A DNA stretch of 64,000 nucleotides from NCBI GenBank assembly GCA_964621395.1, contig CAZULS010000001.1:64615-128614 (forward strand), given 5' to 3'. This document shows, piece after piece, positions 12,217 to 58,031 of this stretch (position 1 is its first letter; each line of letters starts with the position of its first letter). The notes below the pieces were generated by a model. That model was not told the origin of the DNA. It searched no databases and worked only from the letters and a program-made list of their open reading frames with translations. The translations under genes and the position numbers were made by a program. Source of the stretch: an uncultured Candidatus Saccharibacteria bacterium. GTDB taxonomy: Bacteria > Patescibacteriota > Minisyncoccia > Phycocordibacterales > JACNGX01.

Positions 12217-12449
12217 TTAGAACCGGTCTCACTGAAAATGGCTGTTCTCGCGCCCACACTGCGAGCGAACCGTCGTCGCGGAGACCACAACGTACTACTC
12301 GTACGTTATGGTTGAGCGACAAGGTGCAGCCGCAGTGTGGGCGCGAGAACGGCGCATGCGTAGCTCTTGAATATGTTTCTATTATTTTTCAACGTTTTCA
12401 GTGAGACTGGTTCTATTATTTTTCAACGTTTTCAGTGAGACTGGTTCTA
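12217..12449. mobile_element. MITE-like element, M family, about 200 bp, TIR TAGAACCGGTCTCACTGAAAA / TTTTCAGTGAGACTGGTTCTA. The 3-prime terminal 33 bp is tandemly duplicated (12381-12415 and 12416-12449).
   Basis: Terminal inverted repeats and a conserved core (gagaccacaacgtac...ggttgagcgacaaggtgcagcc) shared with the copies at 20100, 35707 and 40392. Confidence 0.7.
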
Positions 12450-12707
12450 CTACCGAATATCTCGCGGGGCGCTGTCGCGGAGTGTTTTTTTAAGAGTAGA
12501 GAGGATAGTTTTTTTTCTCATCGAAATCTCTGCTTTTATAAGCGGACTGGTTTCTATATACACAACTTCCTTTTGCACCCTCACATCGCCGATATCGAGC
12601 AAAATATTGTAATCCGACTCAAGTATCCTCACCACCTCTTTGCGTACCGACTCATCGGGAGGGGTGATGGATGTAAATTTCTTAAGGAGTGAGGAGATAG
12701 AATCCAT
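12450..12707 (-). CDS. Small hypothetical protein (85 aa) immediately downstream of dnaN, possibly DUF721/DciA-like
   Basis: Position after dnaA-dnaN and the segment DVRVQKEVVYIETSPLIKAEISMRKKTIL loosely resemble DUF721. Weak. Confidence 0.3.
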   Translation of the reverse strand: MDSISSLLKKFTSITPPDESVRKEVVRILESDYNILLDIGDVRVQKEVVYIETSPLIKAEISMRKKTILSTLKKTLRDSAPRDIR

Positions 12708-13029: not shown

Positions 13030-14130
13030 TTACTTATTCATCGGCATCACGAGTGAGAGAAACGACTGATCGCCCACTGATTCAATAATGAGTGGTTTAT
13101 TCTCTCCTGAAAACGACACTGACACACTGTCTCCTGAGAGTGACGCGAAGCTATCGGTAATATATTTATAATTCACACTGATTGTTATCTGCTCGCCGGA
13201 GAGTGATGCTTGGAGCGGCATCTTACTCTCACCCACATCGGCATTTTTTGTTTCAATGATATAGGTTTTTTCTTTTGGATTGAGTGACATGGTTGCTTGT
13301 TTGAATGTATTTGAAAACACCATACTCACCTTCAAAGCATCAATAAAATCTTTTTTAAGAACAATAGCGGTTGTGGTATATTCCTTCGGTATAATTTGGC
13401 GATAATCGGGAAACGAGCCGTCGATAATGCGAGAAGTAACATACACCCCTTCTTTCTCAAAGACAATCTGATGATCATTGAAACGAATATCCACATCACC
13501 TTGCTGTTGCTCAAAGATGCGAATAATTTCCAGTGCATTTTTATGTGGGACAAGAATACCACCCCAATCATTCACATTAGTATGTGCTATTTTCTTCTCA
13601 GCCAAACGAAACGAGTCAGTGGCAACAAACACTATGGTATTGTGTTCAGGATACATATACACACTTCCAAGCTCAGGCTTCACATCAGAAAGCGATGAGC
13701 TGTACACCACACTCTTCAATCCCTCAACAAGTTTCTTTACCGGAAGAGAAAAGCTGGTTCCTTGATCAATAACAGGAAGGGAAGGGAATTCCTCTGTGGG
13801 GAGACATTTGATAAGGGTGTTATTCCCTTGCATCGAAAGAGTAAGATTCCCTTCTTTTTCTTCAATATCAATCGCTCCCTCACCTGAAATACCTGAAAGG
13901 AAACCACTGAACACCGATGCTGGTACCGCAACGATACCATCACGCTCGGCCTTGACCGGAAGTTCAACTTCAATACCAATATCAAGATTGGTTGCACGAA
14001 TGACCATACGCTTTCCCGACACCTCTAAAAGAACTGAAGAGAGGATGGGAAGAGAAAGATTTTTTCCTGTTACTTTCTCCGCAAGAGAGATTGTTTCGGA
14101 AAGAAGTTTTTTTGAACATGAGCATTTCAT
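13030..14130 (-). CDS. dnaN: DNA polymerase III beta subunit (sliding clamp)
   Basis: 366 aa, three-domain beta-clamp pattern, dnaA-dnaN synteny. Confidence 0.85.
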   Translation of the reverse strand: MKCSCSKKLLSETISLAEKVTGKNLSLPILSSVLLEVSGKRMVIRATNLDIGIEVELPVKAERDGIVAVPASVFSGFLSGISGEGAIDIEEKEGNLTLSMQGNNTLIKCLPTEEFPSLPVIDQGTSFSLPVKKLVEGLKSVVYSSSLSDVKPELGSVYMYPEHNTIVFVATDSFRLAEKKIAHTNVNDWGGILVPHKNALEIIRIFEQQQGDVDIRFNDHQIVFEKEGVYVTSRIIDGSFPDYRQIIPKEYTTTAIVLKKDFIDALKVSMVFSNTFKQATMSLNPKEKTYIIETKNADVGESKMPLQASLSGEQITISVNYKYITDSFASLSGDSVSVSFSGENKPLIIESVGDQSFLSLVMPMNK

Positions 14131-14415
14131 ACTAATTCAAATGATTACATTATCCCCAAGGGTGTTTTGTATATTATTAAATAAAATTATTATTATTATA
14201 GACTCGGTGGAAAAGTGGAAAGGTATTCTTTTTCGTTATATATCAATGACGGAGCGATATATTCTCATGTGAATAACGTCGGCATAGAAGTGAGTGATTC
14301 TGTTTGCCTGTGTATAGTATATTCACTCCCTCTCTTTTTCCACATATTGTTATATTTTTATACACATACACATACAGGTACTTTTCCCGAGGCTCTACAC
14401 ATATTTTACCCCGCT

Positions 14416-15750
14416 CTACACCAGTGATCGAATTTTTTCCACCTCACTACGAAGACTATTGTCGTCGCTTAAATCTTTTTTCATCTTCTCACAGGAATGC
14501 ATCACTGTGGTGTGGTCTCTTCCCCCAAGATTTTTTCCAATCATCGGATAGGATGCATCATAATCTTCTCGCAAGATATACATCACAATTTGTCGCGGTT
14601 TTACAATCTCTTTTCGTCTCGTTTTCTCATAAATATCCTTTTCAGGAATATCATAGAAGCCGGCAACAGTCTTCACCACATCTTTCACAGAGATGTTCTT
14701 CTTCGGTTTTTCAGCGTGTTTGATGATACGTTTTACTTCATCGAGTGTGAGACCTTTCTCTCCCACTGAGGAATGGCACATGAGGGTGTTAATAGCGCCC
14801 TCAAGCTCGCGAATATTCCCTTCAATGGAAAGAGCAAGATAATCAACAACATCCCCGGGTACTTCAATACCCCGTGAACGAAGCTTCATGGTAATAATAG
14901 AGCTTCGAGCCTCATATTCCGGCTGATTAATGTCCACAATCATGCCGGCGCTAAAGCGTGATTTGAGACGTGACTCAAGACCGGGAATGAAATTGGGGTG
15001 TACGTCGGAGGAGAAAATAATTTGCTTATTACTGTCGTAGAGAGCATTAAAGACGTGGAAGAGTTCCTCTTGCGTTTTTTCTTTATTGGAAAGAAACTGA
15101 ATGTCATCCATGATGAGAGTATCGAAATTGCGATATTTTTCTTTGAAGACATTCGTCGTGTCATTTTGAAGAGAGGAAATGTAGTCAACGAGAAATTTTT
15201 CCGATGTGATGTAGAGTACACGCTTCTTCAAATCTTTTCTCAAATGATTTCCCACCGATTGGATGAGATGGGTCTTCCCCACTCCTGTTCCTCCATAGAC
15301 AAAAAGCGGATTATAGGTGACACCAGGATTTTTAATAATCGCCTGGGCCGCGGCGTACGCTAAATTATTGAATGATCCAACAATAAACGATTCGAATGTG
15401 TAGCGTGGATTGAGATTGCTCTCTTTGTCGACATACACGTCAGCAAGGGGTAGCTCTCCCACCTCACAGCTTTGTACTTTTTTCTCCTCTCCTTCTTTTG
15501 GCACCTTCGCAATAACATATTCGAGCCCACGTACACCGTCGGAGAGCTCACGCAATGACTTTAAAATCATTGTGTGAAATTTTTGTGACAACCATTCTTT
15601 CACGAATTCGTTGGGCACGGCGACGAAGACAGTCCCCTCGTCTTGCTTGACGATGTAGGTGTTGCGAAACCAGGTGCTGAAGTTTGCTCGAGAGATTTGC
15701 GACTCCACTTCGCTGAGTACACTATTCCAAAGTTGAGAGTTGTCGACCAT
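14416..15750 (-). CDS. dnaA: Chromosomal replication initiator DnaA
   Basis: AAA+ Walker A GTGVGKTHL, box VII, C-terminal DnaA-box-binding HTH (MYILREDYDASYPMIGKNLGGRDHTTVMH). Start moved to MVDNSQLW (Met75 of track ORF 14416..15972). Confidence 0.9.
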   Translation of the reverse strand: MVDNSQLWNSVLSEVESQISRANFSTWFRNTYIVKQDEGTVFVAVPNEFVKEWLSQKFHTMILKSLRELSDGVRGLEYVIAKVPKEGEEKKVQSCEVGELPLADVYVDKESNLNPRYTFESFIVGSFNNLAYAAAQAIIKNPGVTYNPLFVYGGTGVGKTHLIQSVGNHLRKDLKKRVLYITSEKFLVDYISSLQNDTTNVFKEKYRNFDTLIMDDIQFLSNKEKTQEELFHVFNALYDSNKQIIFSSDVHPNFIPGLESRLKSRFSAGMIVDINQPEYEARSSIITMKLRSRGIEVPGDVVDYLALSIEGNIRELEGAINTLMCHSSVGEKGLTLDEVKRIIKHAEKPKKNISVKDVVKTVAGFYDIPEKDIYEKTRRKEIVKPRQIVMYILREDYDASYPMIGKNLGGRDHTTVMHSCEKMKKDLSDDNSLRSEVEKIRSLV

Positions 15751-16060
15751 AGAACATGAGATATGTGACACGAATAACGTCACACCATTATAGTATGAGT
15801 GGACACTGTGTGGAAACTTGCAAACCTTGGAAAAGTCTGTTGATAACATGTGGAAAACCTCTTCGAGGCAATATAACAAAAACCAAAAAACAAATTCCAA
15901 ATAATACCCAATATAAAAATACCAATACCAAAACACTCTTGTAACTTTTTTGAATTTTGAATATTTGGTCATTGGTTTTTATTTGTGATTTGGTGCTTGT
16001 GATTTGGTTTTTCACTTGTCCCCTTGCATTTTTACGCCAATACGGTATAGTGGTCCCACT
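15751..16060. promoter_or_regulatory. Candidate oriC / dnaA control region, AT-rich with DnaA-box-like 9-mers (TGTGGAAAC, TTGATAACATGTGGAAAA). A ~50-bp repeat tttggtcattg...tatttgtgatttggtgcttgtgatttgg and a caaattccaaataataccNaatat motif recur downstream of dnaN at 12722-13026.
   Basis: Sequence inspection and dnaA-rpmH divergent arrangement. Direct repeats flank the dnaA-dnaN unit. A second DnaA-box-like/AT-rich tract lies between dnaA and dnaN (14131-14415). Confidence 0.45.
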
Positions 16061-20099: not shown

Positions 20100-20298
20100 C
20101 TAGAACCCATCTCATATTAAATGACTTATTCTCGTGCCACATATTCGCAGCGTAGATGTCTCGGAGACCGTGCCGCACTTTTGTGCGGTGCAGTTGAGAG
20201 ACAAGGTGCAGCCGAATATGTGGTGCGAGAATTGCCAAGCTCTTACACGAAGTGTAAAAAGTATTATCTTAGCGGTTTAATATGAGATGGGTTCTAGT
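20100..20298. mobile_element. MITE-like element, M family variant (TIR CTAGAACCCATCTCATATTAAA / TTTAATATGAGATGGGTTCTAG), 199 bp
   Basis: Perfect 22-bp TIRs, and an internal core homologous to the other M copies (gagaccgtgccgcacttttgtgcggtgcagttgagagacaaggtgcagcc). Confidence 0.7.
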
Positions 20299-32396: not shown

Positions 32397-32455
32397 TGAT
32401 TTCTATTATACAAAAAGAATGGATGTCAACCAATAGGGGTGTGTATGAACAGGCT

Positions 32456-32644
32456 CTTAGAACCAATTAAATAACCTACGCAAAAAAGTAAAAGAGGGAT
32501 GCTCCGGGCAGTCGACGAGCAACATCCGGCATAAAAACCGCGAAAATTCTTCACCATATCTCGATATGGCTCAAAATTTGATCAATTTTTCTGCTCGAAT
32601 GTTGCTCGTCTTTATGCTCCGGAGGTTATGTAATCGGTTCTAAG
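32456..32644. mobile_element. MITE-like element, L family, copy 1 (TIR CTTAGAACCAAT...ATCGGTTCTAAG), 189 bp
   Basis: About 90 percent identical to the reverse complement of 34736-34924. Its right TIR supplies the TAG stop of the lnt-like gene. Confidence 0.7.
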
Positions 32645-34178
32645 GTATGGAAACAATGAGAAGCTCCGCTTTTCCACGGGCGGTACTGTGAGTGATTGTG
32701 CCGGAAGGGTTAATGAGAAAAGACGGTACACCATTTCCCGCGTGGATAAAGTGTCGACCGTGTGTCACGGCGTGGATACGTGCTTGGCGAGTGACGAATG
32801 TCCGGAGTGTGTCGCTGCCGTGAAACGATGAATGAGATGCTGTATTTACAAAAAGATCACTTCCCTCACGCGCTCCGGCAGCGTAAAGTTGTGGGGGTGT
32901 GATTTCCGCACAGAAAAGTGCGGTGATTGTGTAATTATGTACGGAGCCGAGGGTGACGGGTGCGTCGAAAGGATCGGGTGTGTACACGCGACGGTTGCGA
33001 AATGTGTCACGCCACTGGGGAGCGATTGTTTCGGCGATGGTGGCAGCGAAAGCGGGCAGGTATTCGCCAAATGGTGTGAGGAAGCGTTTGTGATATGTGC
33101 CCGCAATTGTGCCCTCCGAAGTGTAGAGGTGGTGTGCCAAACGCAAATCACCGCTTTCCTCTCGGTATGTGGTTGAATCTATGGTCGCGCCCCGAGGTGA
33201 AAGATGGGAAGAGAGAAACGTGCCGCGCTCTTCTTCGGAAAGCGACGAAAGGAAGCGAGAATCTTCGGGAAAGACAAGGAGGTCAAGGGTCGGAGTGTTT
33301 TCGGAGAAGAGCGCGGCTATGTCGCTGTGAGTGTGCTTAAGGGTGGTTTGGGTTGAGCCGAATTCGGATATGCTTTCCGTGTGGATGATACCAATAGTGA
33401 GTGAATCGGAAGAGGAGAGTACAGAGCTGCCCTCCTTTCGAGACAATACTGATGGAACAATGATAATGCCGACAAGAGAGAGGATGATTAGTGCTCGAGA
33501 CATGAGAGACGATGCGCGGTCAATACACACAGCAATTCCCATATTGATATAGACAGCGATAAGAGAAAGGGCCGTGAGACCGCCTATGCTTGCGTACAAC
33601 AGAAGTGATGTGTCACTGAGGGGGGCGCCGGCAAAACCGAATGTCCAATACGGACCGATAGCGGCTTCAGGAGCATACCAAAGAACAGAAAAGAGAAAGG
33701 CGCGGAGGTATTCTGTGAGCACAAAAAGGAGTGTTCCCAAGGAAAGAGTACGGAATACTCCACCTTTAAGCCGTGCAATGAGCCAGGCAAAGAGCGCAGG
33801 GCCGATTGAAAGGACAAGCGTCCCTAAGAGCCATACGGAAGCAATAACCGCATATGACACAACAGGGCTTTCAATGCCGACCCATGTGAGCGGGTATGTG
33901 TCGAAAAACCAAAAAATACTGGCACCGAGCCCGAGGATGCCATAGATGAATCCGCCGATAGCGGCGCGCTTCGGTGATTGTGCGCGAAACACAAAGAAGA
34001 AAAACGGCACGAGCGCGATGAGTGAGAAGAGGCCGGTACCGGGAAAGAGAAACAGACTTGCACTCATCATACCGCTCAAAAGCGGGAGAAGATATGAATC
34101 AGGGCGAGTGAATGGTGAGAGGTGCTCGGGCATGGGTATAGTATAAATGAAAAAGAACAAACAAAAAACGGAAAACAA
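32640..34178 (-). CDS. lnt: Apolipoprotein N-acyltransferase-like protein (polytopic N-terminal domain + C-terminal CN-hydrolase)
   Basis: 7-8 N-terminal TM helices; LLVFPEDSRF (Glu), ALFCAEITPPQL (Cys of the catalytic triad). Confidence 0.55.
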   Translation of the reverse strand: MFSVFCLFFFIYTIPMPEHLSPFTRPDSYLLPLLSGMMSASLFLFPGTGLFSLIALVPFFFFVFRAQSPKRAAIGGFIYGILGLGASIFWFFDTYPLTWVGIESPVVSYAVIASVWLLGTLVLSIGPALFAWLIARLKGGVFRTLSLGTLLFVLTEYLRAFLFSVLWYAPEAAIGPYWTFGFAGAPLSDTSLLLYASIGGLTALSLIAVYINMGIAVCIDRASSLMSRALIILSLVGIIIVPSVLSRKEGSSVLSSSDSLTIGIIHTESISEFGSTQTTLKHTHSDIAALFSENTPTLDLLVFPEDSRFLSSLSEEERGTFLSSHLSPRGATIDSTTYREESGDLRLAHHLYTSEGTIAGTYHKRFLTPFGEYLPAFAATIAETIAPQWRDTFRNRRVYTPDPFDAPVTLGSVHNYTITALFCAEITPPQLYAAGAREGSDLFVNTASHSSFHGSDTLRTFVTRQARIHAVTHGRHFIHAGNGVPSFLINPSGTITHSTARGKAELLIVSIP

Positions 34179-34722: not shown

Positions 34723-34735
34723 GAATGTATTATAA

Positions 34736-34924
34736 CTTAGAACCAATGAAATAACCTCCGGAGCACAAAGACGAGCAACATTCGAGCAGAAAAATTGATA
34801 CACATTCTGAGCCATATCGAGATATGGTGAGGAATGTTAGCGGTTTTTATACCGAATGTTGCTCGTCGACTGCCCGGAGCAGTGACTTCTTATTTTTTGC
34901 GTAGGTTATTTAATTGGTTCTTGG
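34736..34924. mobile_element. MITE-like element, L family, copy 2 (inverted relative to copy 1), 189 bp
   Basis: TIR CTTAGAACCAATG...ATTGGTTCTTGG. Overlaps the last 6 codons and TAA stop of rsmA. Confidence 0.7.
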
Positions 34925-35691
34925 AGCGCTCGTGCGAGGCAATGCCATGCTTCGGGCGATGCATCTTCCGGACGAATATTTGGGTCAATGTTGCATGCAA
35001 TGAGTGTCTCCGGCGAGCATCCGAGATTTTTTACAAGCTTTTTTCTTTTATGAGCAAATCCTGTGCGGAGGATATCGAAAAAACGTTCTTCATCTTTCTG
35101 TGATTGGAAAGGGTCACGCATGTGTTCAACAACAAGCACGGCAGAATCTACCTTGGGTTGCGGACGAAACGCTCCGCGAGCGACAGTGCGGAGTATGCGC
35201 GGCGTGCCAAATGTTTTCACGGCTACGGAGAGAATGCTCTCTTTTCCGTCCCTTGCGACAATACGCTCGGCAACTTCTTTTTGCACGAGAAGTACCGCTT
35301 TTTTCGGTAGATGTGCACGGGTGAAAAACGTGCGAATGAGAAGGCCGGTAATGTAATACGGAATATTTGCCGCGAGCGTGTAAGAGAGGGGTGTGAGATT
35401 GAGTGTTTCGAAATCAAGCTCGAGTGCATCGCCATACATGAGGGAAAACCGCCCACTCTTCTCCTCTTGCGCGAAGCGCTCTTTCAAATGCTCAATAAGA
35501 CGGTCATCTTTTTCAATGGCCGTGAGGCGCGCCCCACCCCGAAGGAGCGCTTCGGTGAGCACGCCTTCACCCGGACCAATTTCCAGGACCCTTTCCTCTC
35601 CTTCAGAAAGTGCGGCGTGCGCAATATCCGCCACCGCTTTTTCAGAGGTAAGAAAATGCTGCCCAAGAGATTTTTTCGCAAATATACTCAT
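34906..35691 (-). CDS. rsmA: 16S rRNA (adenine1518/1519-N6)-dimethyltransferase
   Basis: LGQHFLTSEKAVADIA, LEIGPGEGVLT SAM motif, 261 aa. Confidence 0.85.
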   Translation of the reverse strand: MSIFAKKSLGQHFLTSEKAVADIAHAALSEGEERVLEIGPGEGVLTEALLRGGARLTAIEKDDRLIEHLKERFAQEEKSGRFSLMYGDALELDFETLNLTPLSYTLAANIPYYITGLLIRTFFTRAHLPKKAVLLVQKEVAERIVARDGKESILSVAVKTFGTPRILRTVARGAFRPQPKVDSAVLVVEHMRDPFQSQKDEERFFDILRTGFAHKRKKLVKNLGCSPETLIACNIDPNIRPEDASPEAWHCLARALQEPIK

Positions 35692-35706: not shown

Positions 35707-35906
35707 CTAGAACCAGTCTCACTGAAAATGGCTTGTTCTCGCGCCCAAACAGCGAGCGAGCCGATGTCGCGGAGACCGCGCCGCACTCTCGTGCGGTGCG
35801 GTTGAGCGACAAGGCGCAGCCGCTGTTTGGGCGTGGGAACTGCCAAGCGCAGCTCTTGAGTACGATTCCCTTATTTTTTCAATGTTTTCAGTGAGACTGG
35901 TTCTAG
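35707..35906. mobile_element. MITE-like element, M family, 200 bp, immediately upstream of rsmA
   Basis: TIR CTAGAACCAGTCTCACTGAAAA / TTTTCAGTGAGACTGGTTCTAG; conserved core. Confidence 0.75.
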
Positions 35907-38389: not shown

Positions 38390-40348
38390 TTACTCCACCT
38401 CAATCGTCGGTAATTCATCAGGGTCTTCGGTTTCTGTGTATGTGTCGCTTAAGTCCATTAGAAATTCTGAGGGAGTTTGGGCGCTGATTGAGCCGAAGAT
38501 GGTGCGTGTGTGGGCGTAGGAGAGCCACACTTTTTTCTCCGCACGAGTGATGGCGACATAAAAGAGACGGCGTTCTTCTTCAGCACGCTCGGGACTTACG
38601 ACTGGTCCATCGAAACCGCGGTGTGGGAAAAGTCCGTCTTCAAGGCCGGTGATAAAGACATACGGAAATTCCAATCCCTTGGAAGCGTGCACGGTCATAA
38701 GGCGGACGGCATTTTCATCTTTCTTTTTCTTGGCATCGCCGAGCGAGTCTTGATCGGAAGCAAGGGCCGCGTCGGAGAGGAGCGTTTCAATTCCCTCTTC
38801 GGGTGTGAGGTGGTCGTATTTGGTCGCCAAGCCGACGAGCTCATAGACATTCTCCAGGCGCTCTTCCCCTTCTTCTTTGTCTTTGCGAAAAGCATCCTCA
38901 AGACCGGAACGCTTAATTACATGCTTGAGCGTTTGCGATACAGGGAGATTGGCGCAGTCGTGGGCGATATCGGAAAGAATGTCACGGAAAGCGTGTACCT
39001 TTGCTTGCGTTGCCGGCGGCAGTGTTGCTTCTTCTCCGGAAAGGACTTTTGCCAATGTCACCTTGCCAATACCGCGTGCGGGGACATTCACAATGCGGGA
39101 GAAATCAGCCGTGGCTGCAGGATTAAGAGCGGCGCGGATGTATGCGAGGACATCTTTCACCTCTTTGCGGGCGAAGAATTTCACACCGAGGACTTGATAC
39201 GGAATATTTTTCCCCAGCATGGCTTCTTCAAGAACGCGTGATTGAAAATTTGCTCTGTAGAGAATGGCGATGTCTTTTGGTTCTGCGCCCTGCCGGATAA
39301 GTTCTTGTATTTTTTGAGCGGCAAAGTCCGCCTCAGCTTTCTCGTCCCCGCAAGCAACAACGCTCAATCTCTCGCCCCCCTCTTTGCGGGTGAAAAGATT
39401 TTTTTCTTTGCGCAGTGTGTTTTTGCTAATGATATCGTTGGCCGCCTCAAGAATAGGCGCGGTGGAGCGATAATTTTCTTCCAAGAGCACCACGGTTGCT
39501 TCAGGGTAATCTTCTTCAAAGAGCATCATGTTGCGGAAGTCGGCACCGCGCCAGCCATAAATACTTTGATCGGTGTCGCCCACCACGCAAATATTTTTTC
39601 GCTCACCGGCGAGAAGTTTGGAAAGGGTGTATTGCGCAAAGTTGGTGTCTTGGTATTCGTCGATGTGAATGTGTGACCAGCGTGAATGATAGGTGTTGCG
39701 GATGGTTGGGTCGTTCTTAAGGAGGAGTGTGGTATGGAGAATGAGATCATCAAAATCAAGAGAACCTTCTTCTTCGAGGAGCTTTTCGTATTCGCTCCAC
39801 ACACGTGCCACGATGCGCGGGAAATATTCGTTTTCCACCGACGCTTTGTAGTTTTCGGCAGTGCGAAGCTCCCCTTTCTCGCGAGAGATGGCATTCTTCA
39901 TACGGCGCGGTTCAAATTGCTTTGGGTCGAGCTCGCATTGCTGCAACGCTTTTTTCATGAGACGCGATGTGTCGTCGTCGTCAAGAATAGTGAAATGCTT
40001 CGGACGATTGATAGCTGCAAATTCACGGCGGAGAATGTAGACGCCAAGCGCATGAAAGGTGGAGACAAACGGCGCGGAACCATCGTATGCTCGGACAGGA
40101 TCTGCCGAGAGAAGTTTTACCACACGCTCCTTCATTTCCGCCGCCGCTTTATTGGTGAAGGTAATGGCAAGGATTTGTTCCGGCGCCACGCCTGAGTGAA
40201 TGAGGTTGAGCATGCGGTGCGTGAGGGTTTTGGTCTTCCCCGCGCCGGCACCGGCCACGATAGAGAGCGGGCCGGTTGTGTGCTCGGCTGCTTTTCTCTG
40301 CTCCGGATTGAGTCCTTCGAGGTGATCCATAGGGGGTAAGTATAGCAT
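38390..40348 (-). CDS. pcrA: ATP-dependent DNA helicase PcrA/UvrD
   Basis: Motif I AGAGAGKTKTLTHR, motifs II-VI, 650 aa. Start moved to the Met at MLYLPPMDHLEGLNPEQ because the upstream extension lies inside the MITE. Confidence 0.85.
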   Translation of the reverse strand: MLYLPPMDHLEGLNPEQRKAAEHTTGPLSIVAGAGAGKTKTLTHRMLNLIHSGVAPEQILAITFTNKAAAEMKERVVKLLSADPVRAYDGSAPFVSTFHALGVYILRREFAAINRPKHFTILDDDDTSRLMKKALQQCELDPKQFEPRRMKNAISREKGELRTAENYKASVENEYFPRIVARVWSEYEKLLEEEGSLDFDDLILHTTLLLKNDPTIRNTYHSRWSHIHIDEYQDTNFAQYTLSKLLAGERKNICVVGDTDQSIYGWRGADFRNMMLFEEDYPEATVVLLEENYRSTAPILEAANDIISKNTLRKEKNLFTRKEGGERLSVVACGDEKAEADFAAQKIQELIRQGAEPKDIAILYRANFQSRVLEEAMLGKNIPYQVLGVKFFARKEVKDVLAYIRAALNPAATADFSRIVNVPARGIGKVTLAKVLSGEEATLPPATQAKVHAFRDILSDIAHDCANLPVSQTLKHVIKRSGLEDAFRKDKEEGEERLENVYELVGLATKYDHLTPEEGIETLLSDAALASDQDSLGDAKKKKDENAVRLMTVHASKGLEFPYVFITGLEDGLFPHRGFDGPVVSPERAEEERRLFYVAITRAEKKVWLSYAHTRTIFGSISAQTPSEFLMDLSDTYTETEDPDELPTIEVE

Positions 40349-40391
40349 ACGAGTTTCGAGTATCGAGTTGCGAGCAGTGTCGCTTCGCGAC

Positions 40392-40600
40392 ATGAAAGTT
40401 GTTAGAACCAGTCTCACTGAAAATGGCTTGTTCACACGCCCAAACTGCGAGCGAGCCGACGTCGCGGAGACCGTGCCGCACTGCCGTGCGGTGCGGTTGA
40501 GCGACAAGGCGCAGCCGCTGTTTGGGCGTGGGAACTGCCAAGCGTAGCTCTTGAATATGTTTCCCTTATTTTTCAACGTTTTCAGTGAGACTGGTTCTAG
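40392..40600. mobile_element. MITE-like element, M family, 208 bp, immediately upstream of pcrA/uvrD. Flanked by TCGAG-hexamer repeats on the left and a GTTGGTAGTTTTTAG + GC-hairpin motif on the right.
   Basis: TIRs TAGAACCAGTCTCACTGAAAA / TTTTCAGTGAGACTGGTTCTAG; core about 90 percent identical to 35707-35906. Confidence 0.75.
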
Positions 40601-41409
40601 TTGGTAGTTTTTAGTTTTTAGTGGGCGCGGCTACGCCGCGCCTCATAAATTACACTTCCTGTCATCCCGCACTTGATGCGGGATCTCCGCTATATTGTTT
40701 CCAGACATGGTTGGGGAAGATCCTGAATCGAGTTCAGGATGACACAGGGAACATGGGTGCCAGCACATCTGCATTTCATATCATACAAAAAAACAAAGGG
40801 CCCGTTAGAAACGGACCCCTCAGGAGGTGAAGCATGGCATCCGGGATAATCGATATCAAATGACTGATAAATGTCTTAAGTAATGAACATGAGAAAAAGT
40901 AAAAAAGAGGAGAGTGCGTGGCGCCACGCAGCATGTTCAAAAAGAAAGACAAAAATCAACCAACTGATATACGACTATGTCGAATCAAGCTTCACTTAAA
41001 AAAGAACAGGTACAAAAGAGCGCAAGTAACGATAGCTGATACTATTCTCGCATATCTCACGCATTCGTCAAGTGCGATTGTGGATAAAACTAGCCCCGCC
41101 TTTTTACGGGCGGGGCCTGCGACGAACATCTTTGCGCGGGGTTTGCACTACCGTGTGATGCTGCTCATATCGCGGCAACCTGTTTCAGAGACACTGACAC
41201 AGGTTGTGGTAATCGGGGATGCACGTTTCATAACGTTCTCCTTTTACCGAATTTGGGAATTCAGTAAAGGTAATGCAAGGGCATTACCCCTTGTTCTTCC
41301 ATTCCCATAGAGAAGAACAAACGAATTTCAATATAACATATCTAAGACACAAAGTTAAATATATTTCTGCTCAAAAGATTTTCTGTAACAGATGTGACAT
41401 TATCAAAAA

Positions 41410-43803
41410 TTATGCAATATCCTCCGGCGAAAGAGTGAGTGATTGTCCGCGGGCGATTGTTTTTGCGATGAGACCGTCGGCAATGTATTGTTCGATATGC
41501 TGCTGGATGTAGCGTTTCATTGGGCGGGCACCGAACGCTCTGTCGTAGCCTTCACGCGCGACATGAGCCGCCATCTCGGGGGCAAATGACACACGTACAC
41601 CTCCCTCTTCCTCAATACGCAGAGCAACTTTCCGGAGCATGATGTGAGCAATGGCTTCCACGTCTTTTGGTGAGAGCGGATGGAAGAGAATGGTGCCGGA
41701 GAAGCGGTTGAGGAGTTCGGGCTTAAAGAGGCCATGTTCGATTATCATTGCGATGAAGGTGTCATGCTCTTCGGAAACGTCGCGACCTTCTTCAGTCGCT
41801 TTCCAGATGATGTCGGAGCCGGCATTGGATGTGGCAATAAAGAGAATGTTGCGTGCGTTGACGCGCCTCCCCTCTCCATCGGTAAAGATTCCTTCATCGA
41901 GAATCTGCAAGAACAGATCGTGAACATCCGGATTTGTTTTTTCGAATTCGTCGAGAAGTAACACGCCGTGGGGATGTTCTCGGATCATTGTGGCAAGCAT
42001 GCCCGCCTCCCCGGACGGTGTGCCGATCAAGCGAGCAAGTGCGTCGTGTCCGCGGTATTCCGACATATCAAGACGCAGGAGCGAAGACTCGCCGCCAAAG
42101 ACGACACGCGAGAGCGCTTTGGCGGTTTCTGTTTTCCCGACTCCGGTCGGGCCGAAGAAGATAAATGAGCCGATTGGTTTGCGCGTGTCGGAAACTCCCG
42201 CGCGAGCTCTTCTGAGTGTTTGTGCGATGGCGGAGATTGCCGTCTCTTGACCCACGATGTGTTTGTGGAGGTGTGTTTCAAGATCGGAGAGGACGAGACG
42301 TTCGGAATCTGAGAGCGCGTCAACTGGCACGCTACTTTTCTCGGCGATGAGTGAGCGAATGGTTTCGGGAGTGATGAGCCGCTCTTTTTCCGCAACAGCA
42401 ACTCGGGCGGCGGCTTCGGAGAGGAGATCGCGCGCTTTGTCTACCGGGTCTGCCGACATGAAGTATCGCTCAGCTCCGGAAAGCGCCTTCTCGATTGCCG
42501 GATAGGTGAAGAAGACGTGATAGTTCTTTTCAAGATCGGCAACATCGGACTCCAAAAAGATGAGGAGATCGCTTGAGTCTACGCGCGGAGGACGGACGAT
42601 TTCGAAGCGGCGCATGAGCGACATGTCGCGTTCAAGTTCGCGTGTGTAGGTGCGTGTATCGGAAAACGCGATGAACGCTAGTGACGAATCGGTGAGGAAA
42701 GGATCGAGTATCGAGCGGATATCCGCACCAATTGTGTGTGCTGAGGCCATGAATGCGTGAAGGCGCGGTATGCCGATAATGATATCTCCGGCGTGCCGCG
42801 CTTCTTCCAGGAGTGCTCGGAGGATGCGTTCAAAGGTGATTTTGTCACCCGTCTCGGCGATGAGAAGATCGGTGTCAAGGAGTGCGATGCGTGTATGTTT
42901 CTTTTCTCCAGTGGGGCGGCTGCGAAGCTCGCTTAGGAGGCTTCCGAGGAATACAGGAGCATCAAAAGGACCGACGACAAGCACATTGGATTCATGTGAT
43001 TTTGAAAGACCGCCCAATACACGCGAAAGGGTACGCTCTCCAAGAACACTTCCTTGTGACGCATACGGTACCGTACGGAGGAATGCATCAAGTGTATCGG
43101 TGCGTTTTTTGTGAAATGTTGCGCCAAGTGTTTTTTTGCTTAAGAGCCGCTCGGTATGCCACCAGAAGATTCTATCCAGTTCTCTCTCGCGCATGCGTCC
43201 ACACCACCCGGCTGTGCTTGCGGCGACGTGGCGTGTGATGCCTTTGGAAAAAAGAAAGTCGCTCAAAGGTTCGTCATGTGCGATGAGTTCGGCGACAAAA
43301 TCTTCAAGAGAATACCACGGCGAGTGATCGGTGTCGGTAAAGGAGAGTTTCGTTTTTTGCACACCTCTTTTTTTGAGAAAAGCGCGTACTTCTTTTGGTG
43401 AGAGTCCGAGGCGGTGCGTGTATGCAGTGCCGATTGGCGAGCGAAAGAGCGCACGAACCAAATCACCGCGATGCATACTTTCGGTGATGGAAAGGACAGC
43501 AAGAGAGATAAGCCTCTCGACGCCCTCGGTGGTTTTTGTGCCGCGTGCGCGGAAATACAGTGAGCGGAAAAAAAGCTCCGCCATGAAAAGAACAAGTGTG
43601 CAGCCAAAGAGTATGAGGCCGATACCGGCGATGATGTTTCCGTATGTGTGCGTGTGAAAGGTTGCCGCGCCGAAGAAAAGAATGATTGCCAGCATGAGTG
43701 CCCCTGCGGCAATTCTCATACGAGCTCGGCGCGGAAGCAATCGCTCAAGGACGGAAAGCGGATACAGTGCCGAGCGTGAAGTTGTGTTCCTGAGTGTGCT
43801 CAT
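41410..43803 (-). CDS. Membrane-anchored ClpA/ClpB-family AAA+ protein with a degenerate (Walker A/B-less) first nucleotide-binding domain and an intact second one
   Basis: Two N-terminal TM helices. D1 GPFDAPVF (no GKT) and IIIGIPRLH (no DE). D2 FFGPTGVGKTE, LLLDEFEK, sensor/arginine finger region. No middle domain or ClpP loop recognised. Start set at MSTLRNT, overlapping the upstream gene stop by 4 nt. Confidence 0.65.
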   Translation of the reverse strand: MSTLRNTTSRSALYPLSVLERLLPRRARMRIAAGALMLAIILFFGAATFHTHTYGNIIAGIGLILFGCTLVLFMAELFFRSLYFRARGTKTTEGVERLISLAVLSITESMHRGDLVRALFRSPIGTAYTHRLGLSPKEVRAFLKKRGVQKTKLSFTDTDHSPWYSLEDFVAELIAHDEPLSDFLFSKGITRHVAASTAGWCGRMRERELDRIFWWHTERLLSKKTLGATFHKKRTDTLDAFLRTVPYASQGSVLGERTLSRVLGGLSKSHESNVLVVGPFDAPVFLGSLLSELRSRPTGEKKHTRIALLDTDLLIAETGDKITFERILRALLEEARHAGDIIIGIPRLHAFMASAHTIGADIRSILDPFLTDSSLAFIAFSDTRTYTRELERDMSLMRRFEIVRPPRVDSSDLLIFLESDVADLEKNYHVFFTYPAIEKALSGAERYFMSADPVDKARDLLSEAAARVAVAEKERLITPETIRSLIAEKSSVPVDALSDSERLVLSDLETHLHKHIVGQETAISAIAQTLRRARAGVSDTRKPIGSFIFFGPTGVGKTETAKALSRVVFGGESSLLRLDMSEYRGHDALARLIGTPSGEAGMLATMIREHPHGVLLLDEFEKTNPDVHDLFLQILDEGIFTDGEGRRVNARNILFIATSNAGSDIIWKATEEGRDVSEEHDTFIAMIIEHGLFKPELLNRFSGTILFHPLSPKDVEAIAHIMLRKVALRIEEEGGVRVSFAPEMAAHVAREGYDRAFGARPMKRYIQQHIEQYIADGLIAKTIARGQSLTLSPEDIA

Positions 43804-44189
43804 AGAAAAAGAATGAAGAATCCGAGGAGTATGACGGCGATTGCGGCAAACGGAAGAAGAAGCCAGAGTATGAAGGAAAAGAGAAGAATCGGCAGCGAAC
43901 AGAGTGTGACAATCAGCCATCCGAGGAGGAGAACGCTTCGGGCGATTATGCCGACAATGCGCATGAGTGTGTTGACGATAAACGCTTCAAAGAATTTGGT
44001 CGGTGAGAGATCTTTCGGATACGCTTCCCCTTCCGCTTTCCAGGGACGGAAGAAGGTGGCAAGAAGAGTGGGCACGGAAAACGTGTGCGCGAGAAAGCGA
44101 AGTGCCGTGAGCGCAAGAGAAGCTCCATCGGAGATGCCGATAGAGTAATGCCACAAAAGATAACGACTCGAAAGCGCGAGAGGATTCAT
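43800..44189 (-). CDS. Small polytopic membrane protein (129 aa) translationally coupled to the Clp-like ATPase gene
   Basis: ORF track; 3 hydrophobic helices; its stop overlaps the start of the downstream gene. Confidence 0.45.
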   Translation of the reverse strand: MNPLALSSRYLLWHYSIGISDGASLALTALRFLAHTFSVPTLLATFFRPWKAEGEAYPKDLSPTKFFEAFIVNTLMRIVGIIARSVLLLGWLIVTLCSLPILLFSFILWLLLPFAAIAVILLGFFILFL

Positions 44190-57886: not shown

Positions 57887-57960
57887 ATGTAAACTTTACA
57901 CAAATAATTTTATACCGGTGCGTATGTGCCGTCAAGCGCGCAAACAAAATGGTTGACGTA

Positions 57961-58031
57961 CTAGAACCAATCTCACTGAAAACGTTGAAAAATAAGGAGA
58001 TCATATTCAAGAGCTGCGCTTGGCGGTTCTA
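57961..58031. mobile_element. Miniature (71-bp) derivative of the M-family MITE. It keeps a left TIR CTAGAACCAATCTCACTGAAAA plus about 45 bp matching the right-end subterminal region, and ends ...GGTTCTAA.
   Basis: It is the reverse complement of the right 65 bp of 40392-40600, with a short terminal inverted repeat. Confidence 0.55.

Follow-up and report, generated by a model that had tools for sequence, protein, structure and literature searches.

A predicted structured small RNA gene behind a DnaA-box-like motif upstream of pcrA

The clp–pcrA gap and the conservation of unit B

We analysed a 64,000-nucleotide stretch of contig CAZULS010000001.1 from an uncultured Candidatus Saccharibacteria bacterium, hereafter the window, in which a Clp-like AAA+ gene (clp) and pcrA, both on the minus strand, are separated by an intergenic gap of 1,079 bp (40331-41409). 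The block between the two genes consists of two unrelated minus-strand units, A (41409-41088) and B (41087-40787), and approximately 40400-40750 of the gap is occupied by repeats, namely a miniature inverted-repeat transposable element (MITE)-like element and repetitive extragenic palindromic (REP)-like hairpins that recur through the window. Our subject is unit B, which, judged from its sequence, very probably represents a conserved gene for a structured non-coding RNA.

Unit B begins with the 9-mer TTATCCACA, one of only two perfect consensus DnaA boxes in the window, followed by a promoter with a TG extension that was identified by consensus scan (Table 1). Transcription is predicted to start near A41037 and to run to an intrinsic terminator, whose hairpin (40822-40794) is followed by TTTGTTTTTTT. 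Across 40300-41700, the consensus scan returned six terminator-like sites against 1.4 +/- 1.2 in shuffled sequence, and six promoter-like sites against 2.0 +/- 1.5.

From the surroundings of PcrA homologues and of cluster members, we obtained seven copies of unit B: that of the window and those of L001 (Parcubacteria metagenome-assembled genome (MAG) NIOZ-UU136), L028, L029 (a Yonathbacteria MAG), L031, L090 (a TARA scaffold) and L091. Duplicate records were found for L001 (L070) and for L031 (L041, and L064 with one single-nucleotide difference). By its Clp-like protein and PcrA, the window falls within Parcubacteria (Paceibacterota), near Candidatus Yonathbacteria, L001 being its best relative at species level. 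Window positions 41087 to about 40790 align with the intergenic sequence preceding pcrA in each of the six other loci. In all seven genomes unit B is upstream of pcrA on the same strand, and neither the 64-kb window nor any related locus contains a second copy. The upstream neighbour of unit B itself varies, being clp, a lineage-specific methyltransferase-like gene or other genes, and the Clp-like protein is only 62% identical between the window and L001. A DnaA box with zero or one mismatch is present 7-10 nt upstream of TTGAC in every homologue although the flanks differ (TTATCCACA in three, TTTTCCACA in three and ATATCCACA in one). The element TTGAC-N13-ATGCGAnAAT is conserved in six of the seven, L031 having TTGAC...TGTGAGAAC, and a terminator hairpin with a U-run closes all seven units, its stem sequences differing among them. 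A sigma-70-type promoter and an intrinsic terminator, both conserved, thus bracket a non-coding stretch, which is the arrangement of a stand-alone small RNA (sRNA) gene.

The constant position of unit B in front of pcrA, maintained while the upstream neighbour changes, would also fit a cis element of that gene, such as a leader, a transcriptional insulator or a DnaA-controlled read-through unit, and a DnaA box beside the gene for a replication/repair helicase would be biologically sensible. However, the strong terminator ends the RNA in every genome, no anti-terminator alternative was seen, and the distance from unit B to pcrA ranges from about 70 to about 580 nt, with repeats or other small units inserted between them. 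Moreover, pcrA has its own conserved promoter, TGCTATACT (window 40339-40346; TGATATACT in L090), which in every relative ends 7-8 nt before the ATG, so that the pcrA mRNA is probably leaderless. A cis role for unit B in pcrA expression is, in our judgement, very unlikely.

As far as these sequences indicate, the unit B family appears to be confined to one small Parcubacteria clade. It was not found upstream of pcrA in PcrA relatives at about 63% identity (L032, L092 and L093). R1, a covariance model of the four closest sequences, gave no match in L032 or near distant clp genes, and BLAST searches of phage and plasmid sequences returned 0 matches.

Several observations were made on the flanks of these homologues. 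The window lacks the methyltransferase-like gene that separates clp from unit B in L001 and L091; as a search anchor, this gene yielded only two members among 5.8 billion proteins. Between the window and L090, the pcrA DNA is 93% identical and clp only 71.5%, unit B has diverged strongly, and the genes separating clp from pcrA are not the same in the two loci; pcrA has either been unusually constrained or been recently exchanged. In L090, a 49-aa gene after clp has a promoter layout like that of pcrA. Further small promoter-hairpin-terminator units are located beside unit B in L031 and L029 (Table 1); CCUGUUCU, resembling the leader motif of unit B, is present in the L031 unit and in an L029 hairpin loop, and L029 also contains AAGGAGAG-ATG followed by an 8-codon open reading frame (ORF).

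Folding, strand and coding potential of unit B

The RNA strand of unit B (40790-41040) folds with a minimum free energy (MFE) of -77.9 kcal/mol (z = -7.95 against dinucleotide shuffles), and the antisense strand with an MFE of -62.7 (z = -4.6). When the seven RNAs were folded separately, the same architecture was obtained each time, with z values of -4.2 to -9.9 against dinucleotide shuffles. This common anatomy comprises a U-rich leader, a rod of 140-190 nt, an apical stem of 5-8 bp, a GC-rich palindrome and 20-25 unpaired nucleotides, and, after the rod, a short CU-rich and then A-rich linker leading to the terminator hairpin and U-run. Directly 5' of the rod, all seven homologues carry UG(U/C)UCUUUU, of which the window holds one exact copy. 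Within the rod of the window, the core AUAUCAG-U-UGGUUGAU (40970-40955) is paired with AUCAGUCA-U-UUGAUAU (40868-40853), the quasi-palindrome AUCAR-N4-UUGAU occurs in both arms, and the apical stem is formed by UGAACAUG (40939-40932) and CAUGUUCA (40891-40884). The single-stranded apical segment includes UUUUUUAC (40906-40899 in the window), which is invariant in all seven homologues.

Comparison of these folds by hand revealed that pairing is retained where sequence is not. The apical palindrome is perfect in each of the seven RNAs and differs in sequence, reading UGCGUG-GCGC-CACGCA in the window, GUGC-GCGC-GCAC in L001, UUUGCAC-GCGC-GUGCAAA in L090, GAUCC-GGCC-GGAUC in L029 and GACUC-GGCC-GAGUC in L031. 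The apical stem likewise keeps its pairing in the variants GAACAUG/CAUGUUC, GAAUGU/ACAUUC and CGAUG/CAUCG. Compensatory changes affect this stem, the basal helix and, within the UGGUUGAU/AUCAGUCA core helix, the outer pairs; the terminator stem has also changed on both sides with pairing kept, and matched insertions of about 9-10 nt are present in both rod arms of L001 and L028. The sense strand gave a more stable MFE than the antisense strand in 6/7 RNAs. Across the folds, 52 G:U pairs stand against 10 A.C oppositions, and the mismatches are mainly U.U or U.C, suggesting selection on the T-rich minus strand as RNA.

These observations bear on the possibility that unit B acts at the DNA level, for instance as a domesticated MITE, a cruciform, a pair of palindromic operators or a single-strand-origin-like hairpin. 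The genome is rich in MITE-like and REP-like inverted repeats, the apex palindrome is perfect including its 'loop', the palindromic core ATCAR-N4-TTGAT occurs twice, and the antisense strand, too, folds better than chance. By contrast, a DNA element would not readily account for a single copy per locus, syntenic in seven diverged genomes and bracketed exactly by a conserved promoter and terminator, nor for the excess of G:U over A.C that, together with the U.U mismatches, favours the T-rich strand. The sequence of the palindrome is not conserved, unlike that of an operator, and with the replication origin placed at 14-16 kb (see below), the exposed lagging-strand template would be the A-rich plus strand, which is not the better-folding one. 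We regard a DNA-level role as even less probable than a cis role in pcrA expression.

Coding potential was assessed on both strands, given that unit A contains a 27-codon ORF with a well-placed Shine-Dalgarno (SD) sequence 5 nt from its ATG, that ORFs of 24-66 codons open at an apical AUG in six of the seven unit B homologues, and that a gene caller had accepted a 125-aa antisense ORF. Small proteins, whether the unit A peptide, a Phe/Leu-rich type I toxin-like peptide in unit B or the antisense product of 125 or 130 aa, could in principle explain the block. However, no ORF between clp and pcrA matched a Pfam or NCBIfam family. Across the invariant block, the apical-AUG ORFs of even close relatives are read in different frames (LFY in the window, L029 and L031; FFT in L001 and L028), these ORFs have no SD and continue through the terminator, and L091 has AUA in place of AUG. 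The same features distinguish unit B from a type I toxin-antitoxin locus, and the unconserved frame and the AUA of L091 led us to reject a protein translated from the apical AUG, or by -1 frameshifting at U UUU UUA.

The antisense ORF had already been called implausible by a sequence-only reading of the window, which had found no credible protein ORF in the block, and this holds: the 125-aa ATG version, called as a gene in the public record, forms a singleton cluster. An antisense ORF called in L091 is in another frame and has no protein similarity to that of the window despite 83% DNA identity. The call of the 130-aa ORF is explained by GAGGAG-5 nt-GTG, the complement of the CU-rich loop with UUUUUUAC, which mimics a plus-strand ribosome-binding site; in 4/7 genomes, unrelated 'hypothetical proteins' are annotated over unit B because this pyrimidine-rich loop yields a false opposite-strand SD. 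For annotation, the lesson is that a pyrimidine-rich RNA loop can create spurious genes on the opposite strand. The 27-aa ORF has no homologue, and the closest relatives, L091 and L090, lack unit A altogether. Judged by these frames, unit B is not protein-coding, and small proteins are the least probable of the rival explanations considered.

Unit A and the surrounding locus

Unit A comprises a weak possible promoter, three consecutive hairpins, the 27-codon ORF and a terminator, which is the first after the clp-like gene. The segment 41085-41325 folds with z = -5.32 against dinucleotide shuffles. No homologue of unit A was found in the related loci or in phage or plasmid sequences, and L091 and L090 carry other genes at its position. 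Its interpretation as a decayed methyltransferase gene was discarded, no similarity being found. The ORF encodes only a putative, unverified peptide, whose exact sequence is absent from a collection of 15 billion proteins. Unit A is probably the structured 3' end and terminator of the clp-like mRNA, or otherwise a strain-specific orphan unit.

The sequence-only reading had described the whole block as a structured RNA locus. For the downstream half this is borne out, unit B being conserved, structured and non-coding and recurring in six other loci, whereas the upper half, with no counterpart in any of them, is strain-specific and unproven as an RNA locus; the suggestion of an sRNA pair accordingly survives for unit B and lacks a partner in unit A. 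The alternative of a leader-peptide attenuator fails, as the terminator after the small ORF has no visible anti-terminator and is followed by a separate promoter and RNA instead of a structural gene. Among the individual signals, two minus-strand hairpins (GTTCTTCT...GGAAGAAC at 41318-41293 and GGTAATGC-CCTT-GCATTACC at 41288-41269) and two minus-strand terminators (41117-41092 and 40822-40794) were recovered as described, and a third hairpin at 41266-41245 had gone unlisted. The possible promoter proposed near 41330 was recovered by the scan with a shift of 1 nt (TTAACT-17-TATATT, 41358-41330), and the better one, TTGACG-16-GAGAAT with its TG extension (41071-41044), had been missed. The small ORF does follow an SD-ATG signal and has 27 codons (MKRASPITTTCVSVSETGCRDMSSITR) rather than 15, MKRAIPDYHNLCQCL being a slipped-frame translation; the perfect 16-nt palindrome is real and lies at 40915-40930, not at 40918-40933.

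On either side of the block, the gene boundaries could be fixed. The Clp-like protein has 836 aa and contains a single well-scoring AAA+ module and a ClpB D2-small domain; its N-terminal ~450 aa matched no family and include a hydrophobic stretch near residues 70-115. The true start of pcrA is ATG 40330, giving a protein of 646 aa identical to database protein P0001; the ORF finder had called 728 aa from TTG 40576 because a MITE-like copy lies upstream of the gene. REP-like hairpin repeats, often arranged as inverted pairs flanking genes, occur at >=15 other intergenic sites, for example 3831, 6931, 8816, 37632, 47558 and 61704. Elsewhere in the window, an lnt-like gene and a DUF192 gene are flanked by inverted repeats of about 200 nt that are 85-93% complementary; by Pfam, neither gene is transposase-like.

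The chromosomal origin (oriC) is probable at 13030-16000, about 25 kb from unit B, where dnaA and dnaN, clusters of DnaA boxes with <=1 mismatch, including TTTTCCACA twice beside dnaA, and the minimum of the cumulative GC skew (14-16 kb) coincide. A second oriC at unit B was rejected, only one box being present there and the real box clusters and skew minimum lying at 14-16 kb. Most genes to the right of oriC (17-46 kb) are on the minus strand and would therefore be head-on to a rightward fork.

Table 1. Coordinates of the features at and around the clp–pcrA gap (window positions unless a locus is named)
Feature	Position	Strand	Details
DnaA-box-like 9-mer TTATCCACA	41079..41087	-	7 nt upstream of unit B -35
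Unit B promoter	41044..41071	-	-35 TTGACG 41071-41066; 16-nt spacer; TG 41052-41051; -10 GAGAAT 41049-41044; consensus scan
Unit B predicted transcript	40788..41037	-	~250 nt; 43% U
Unit B U-rich unstructured 5' leader	40996..41037	-	CUGUUCUUUU at 41009-41000
Unit B rod	40827..40995	-	169-nt imperfect hairpin; basal helix GUGAAGC/GCUUCAC
Unit B apical hairpin	40915..40930	-	perfect 16-nt palindrome TGCGTGGCGCCACGCA = UGCGUG-GCGC-CACGCA
Unit B single-stranded apical segment CUCUCCUCUUUUUUACUUUUUCU	40892..40914	-	23 nt; unpaired probability ~1.0
Unit B anti-SD-like motif UCACCUCCU	40820..40833	-	in GCUUCAC-CUCCUGA; 3' strand of basal helix and linker before terminator
Unit B intrinsic terminator	40787..40822	-	13-pair stem (40822-40794), then UUUGUUUUUUU; consensus scan
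Unit B homologues	L091 705-958; L001 7799-8078; L028 3276-3560; L090 4732-4946; L029 5211-5425; L031 2712-2932		
Antisense ORF	40918..41310	+	130 aa (125 aa from ATG 40933); judged spurious; no Pfam or NCBIfam match
Unit A weak possible promoter	41330..41358	-	TTAACT-17-TATATT; 9 of 12 consensus matches; conserved nowhere
Unit A three consecutive hairpins	41245..41318	-	41318-41293, 41288-41269, 41266-41245
Unit A 27-codon ORF MKRASPITTTCVSVSETGCRDMSSITR, putative	41148..41231	-	SD AAAGGAGA, 5-6 nt, ATG 41231-41229; GGAG 41241-41238
Unit A terminator GGCCCCGCC...GGCGGGGC	41086..41117	-	9-pair GC stem (41117-41092) and T-run
Clp-like AAA+ gene	41410-43920	-	3' end at 41410; Pfam AAA_2 and ClpB_D2-small
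pcrA promoter in relatives (approximate)	L001 8230-8249; L028 3958-3977; L031 2985-3003; L090 4987-5003; L091 1390-1408		
MITE-like element	40402-40600		~200 bp; terminal inverted repeats TTAGAACCAGTCTCACTGAAAA; also at 35707-35906, 12217-12450, 20100-20240, 57960-58029
REP-like hairpin repeats	40656-40751		GTCATCCCGCACTTGATGCGGGATC, GTCATTCTGAACTTGATTCAGAATC and variants
Methyltransferase-like gene	L001 7136-7747; L091 42-677		weak FtsJ and Methyltransf matches
Further small units beside unit B	L031 2493-2620; L029 5455-5540, 5560-5830		promoter, hairpin, terminator
Inverted repeats around lnt-like and DUF192 genes	32453-32648; 34732-34927		
dnaA	14416-15972	-	by Pfam
dnaN	13030-14130	-	by Pfam
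DnaA-box clusters	14150-14366; 15838-15857		<=1 mismatch

Proposed function and comparison with known systems

For unit B, we propose a model in which a sigma-70-type promoter behind a DnaA box would drive transcription over about 250 nt to the intrinsic terminator, tuned by DnaA occupancy of the upstream box. The rod would provide stability or a protein-binding surface, and the working surfaces would be exposed pyrimidines, namely the leader UGYUCUUUU, the apical loop and, in five of the seven genomes, the anti-SD-like linker UCACCUCCU, which would probably pair with the purine-rich ribosome-binding regions of mRNAs. In the window, the duplex of the UCACCUCCU motif with AAAGGAGGUGAU is predicted at -16.7 kcal/mol, a value equalled by 0 of 200 shuffles, and anti-SD pairing beats shuffles in the window, L091, L001, L090 and L028 (fraction at or below the observed value, 0-0.04). 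In the window subgroup, the apical loop, too, resembles an anti-SD sequence (CUCUCCUCUUUUUUAC). On these grounds, unit B may be a trans-acting, DnaA-tuned translational regulator that works by base-pairing, a function we put forward tentatively. Taken as a whole, an sRNA gene with such a trans-acting, DnaA-tuned mechanism is the best explanation overall, and we hold it with slightly better than even confidence, a grade that is a compromise between our high confidence in the gene and the tentative standing of its mechanism.

Several points weigh against this explanation. Conservation is highest within helices (AUAUCA.UGAUUGAU with UCAGUCAUUUGAUAU), and the conserved paired core and UUUUUUAC suit protein binding or a conformational switch no less well than a base-pairing seed. 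The anti-SD motif is not significant in L029 (0.64) or L031 (0.10) and so cannot be the universal function of the family, the single DnaA box could be fortuitous or bind another factor, and a search of the window for complements of the apical loop gave nothing specific and identified no target mRNA. As regards the structure, the covariation described above comes from hand comparison of independently folded sequences rather than a formal test; MAFFT, whether applied to all seven sequences or just to the apical module, leaves the divergent subgroups and hairpins out of register, and model R1 finds L090 weakly and misses L029 and L031. The family, moreover, is known from no more than seven sequences, all of one narrow clade. 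Scanning metagenomes with the pattern TTTTTTAC...TCAGTC..TTGATWTC returned 57 stretches, of which three were real and all of these known loci, but the pattern was so strict that it would have missed L090; a scan of viral contigs with the DnaA-box/promoter pattern gave 0 matches.

The position of the conserved nucleotides leads to the strongest competing explanation, in which unit B is a protein-binding or scaffold RNA, either a 6S-like RNA polymerase decoy or part of another ribonucleoprotein (RNP), acting through its rod and double-stranded core. Its rod-like form, length of about 200 nt and paired ends would agree with this, as would the fact that the best-conserved nucleotides are in the paired core and apical loop in 7/7 homologues whereas the anti-SD motif is present in only 5/7, and the occurrence of AUCAR-N4-UUGAU in both arms suggests a symmetric binding site or a switch. 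However, the folds have no conserved large central bubble, their internal loops varying between homologues, no match to RF00013 or to a protein-binding RNA family was obtained even at E <= 10, and no candidate partner gene is linked to unit B, since the upstream neighbours vary. We consider a scaffold function unlikely. A broader proposal, that unit B is a lineage-specific, DnaA-controlled riboregulator or RNP core coupling replication initiation to translation or helicase function in these minimal, symbiotic bacteria, is distinctly unlikely. If it were true, unit B would represent a new RNA class, marked by its conserved rod, its self-complementary GC apex and the loop with invariant UUUUUUAC. 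A conserved RNA with a DnaA box, delimited by promoter and terminator, would itself be an entry point to RNA-based and replication-linked regulation in small genomes with few transcription factors.

Unit B matches no known RNA family in Rfam 15. At gathering score, 0 matches were obtained in the window, L001, L028, L029 and L031. The sequence-only reading had raised the possibility of a housekeeping RNA missing elsewhere in the window and had named an Rfam scan as a check; even at E <= 10 (window region, L028 and L029), no transfer-messenger RNA (tmRNA), RNase P, signal recognition particle or 6S RNA was matched, and ARAGORN detected no tmRNA, so that this possibility is not supported. Permissive Rfam scans gave chance-level matches only, with MIR9746 on a REP hairpin, TCV_Pr on the terminator and MicF at 28 of 79 bits. 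Weak matches to RF00519 (suhB/MmgR), with scores from 15.0 through 17.4 to 19.7 bits, recurred among the window, L028 and L029; they stayed below the gathering score of 41 bits that marks membership and covered only the CU-rich linker and terminator of unit B. Our literature search turned up no 6S-like or structured regulatory RNA from candidate phyla radiation (CPR) bacteria (Patescibacteria/Parcubacteria). Collectively, its sequence makes unit B a credible candidate for a previously undescribed sRNA gene and for a new, narrowly distributed family.

Trans-encoded base-pairing sRNAs with a C/U-rich anti-SD seed beside the terminator include MmgR/alpha-r8 (RF00519), RsaE/RoxS and the 'cuckoo' RNAs. 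Unit B resembles them in that it has a promoter and an intrinsic terminator to itself and that an exposed CCUCC-type motif directly precedes the terminator. It differs in being 2-3 times longer, dominated by a rod of 140-190 nt, located in a different phylum and without sequence homology to them; in L029 and L031 there is no such motif or an insignificant one, and the RF00519 scores lie far below 41. With 6S RNA (RF00013), unit B shares a rod-like form of about 200 nt, long-distance pairing of the 5' and 3' parts and a stand-alone gene, whereas the extra 40-nt leader, the apical palindromic hairpin and its own terminator hairpin set it apart. In place of the central bubble of 6S RNA, the seven folds show small internal loops at non-conserved positions, and their only large unpaired region is apical and one-sided.

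Transcripts derived from MITE or REP elements (Correia, ERIC or BOX-like) are likewise long imperfect inverted repeats, and the present genome is rich in repeats. In contrast to such dispersed elements, which have copies at unrelated sites, unit B is found once in the 64-kb window and once per related locus, is syntenic in seven genomes, shows compensatory change and retains its promoter and terminator. Finally, DnaA-regulated promoters of model bacteria, such as those of dnaA, sda, nrdAB and mioC, have a consensus DnaA box immediately upstream of the -35 element. Unit B has such a box, perfect in the window and with 0-1 mismatch in all seven homologues, and DnaA regulation is predicted from it; unlike those promoters, it has a single box and would yield a non-coding RNA. 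Set beside these systems, the unusual features of unit B are its very long rod, its perfect self-complementary GC apex, its invariant U6AC and its DnaA box.

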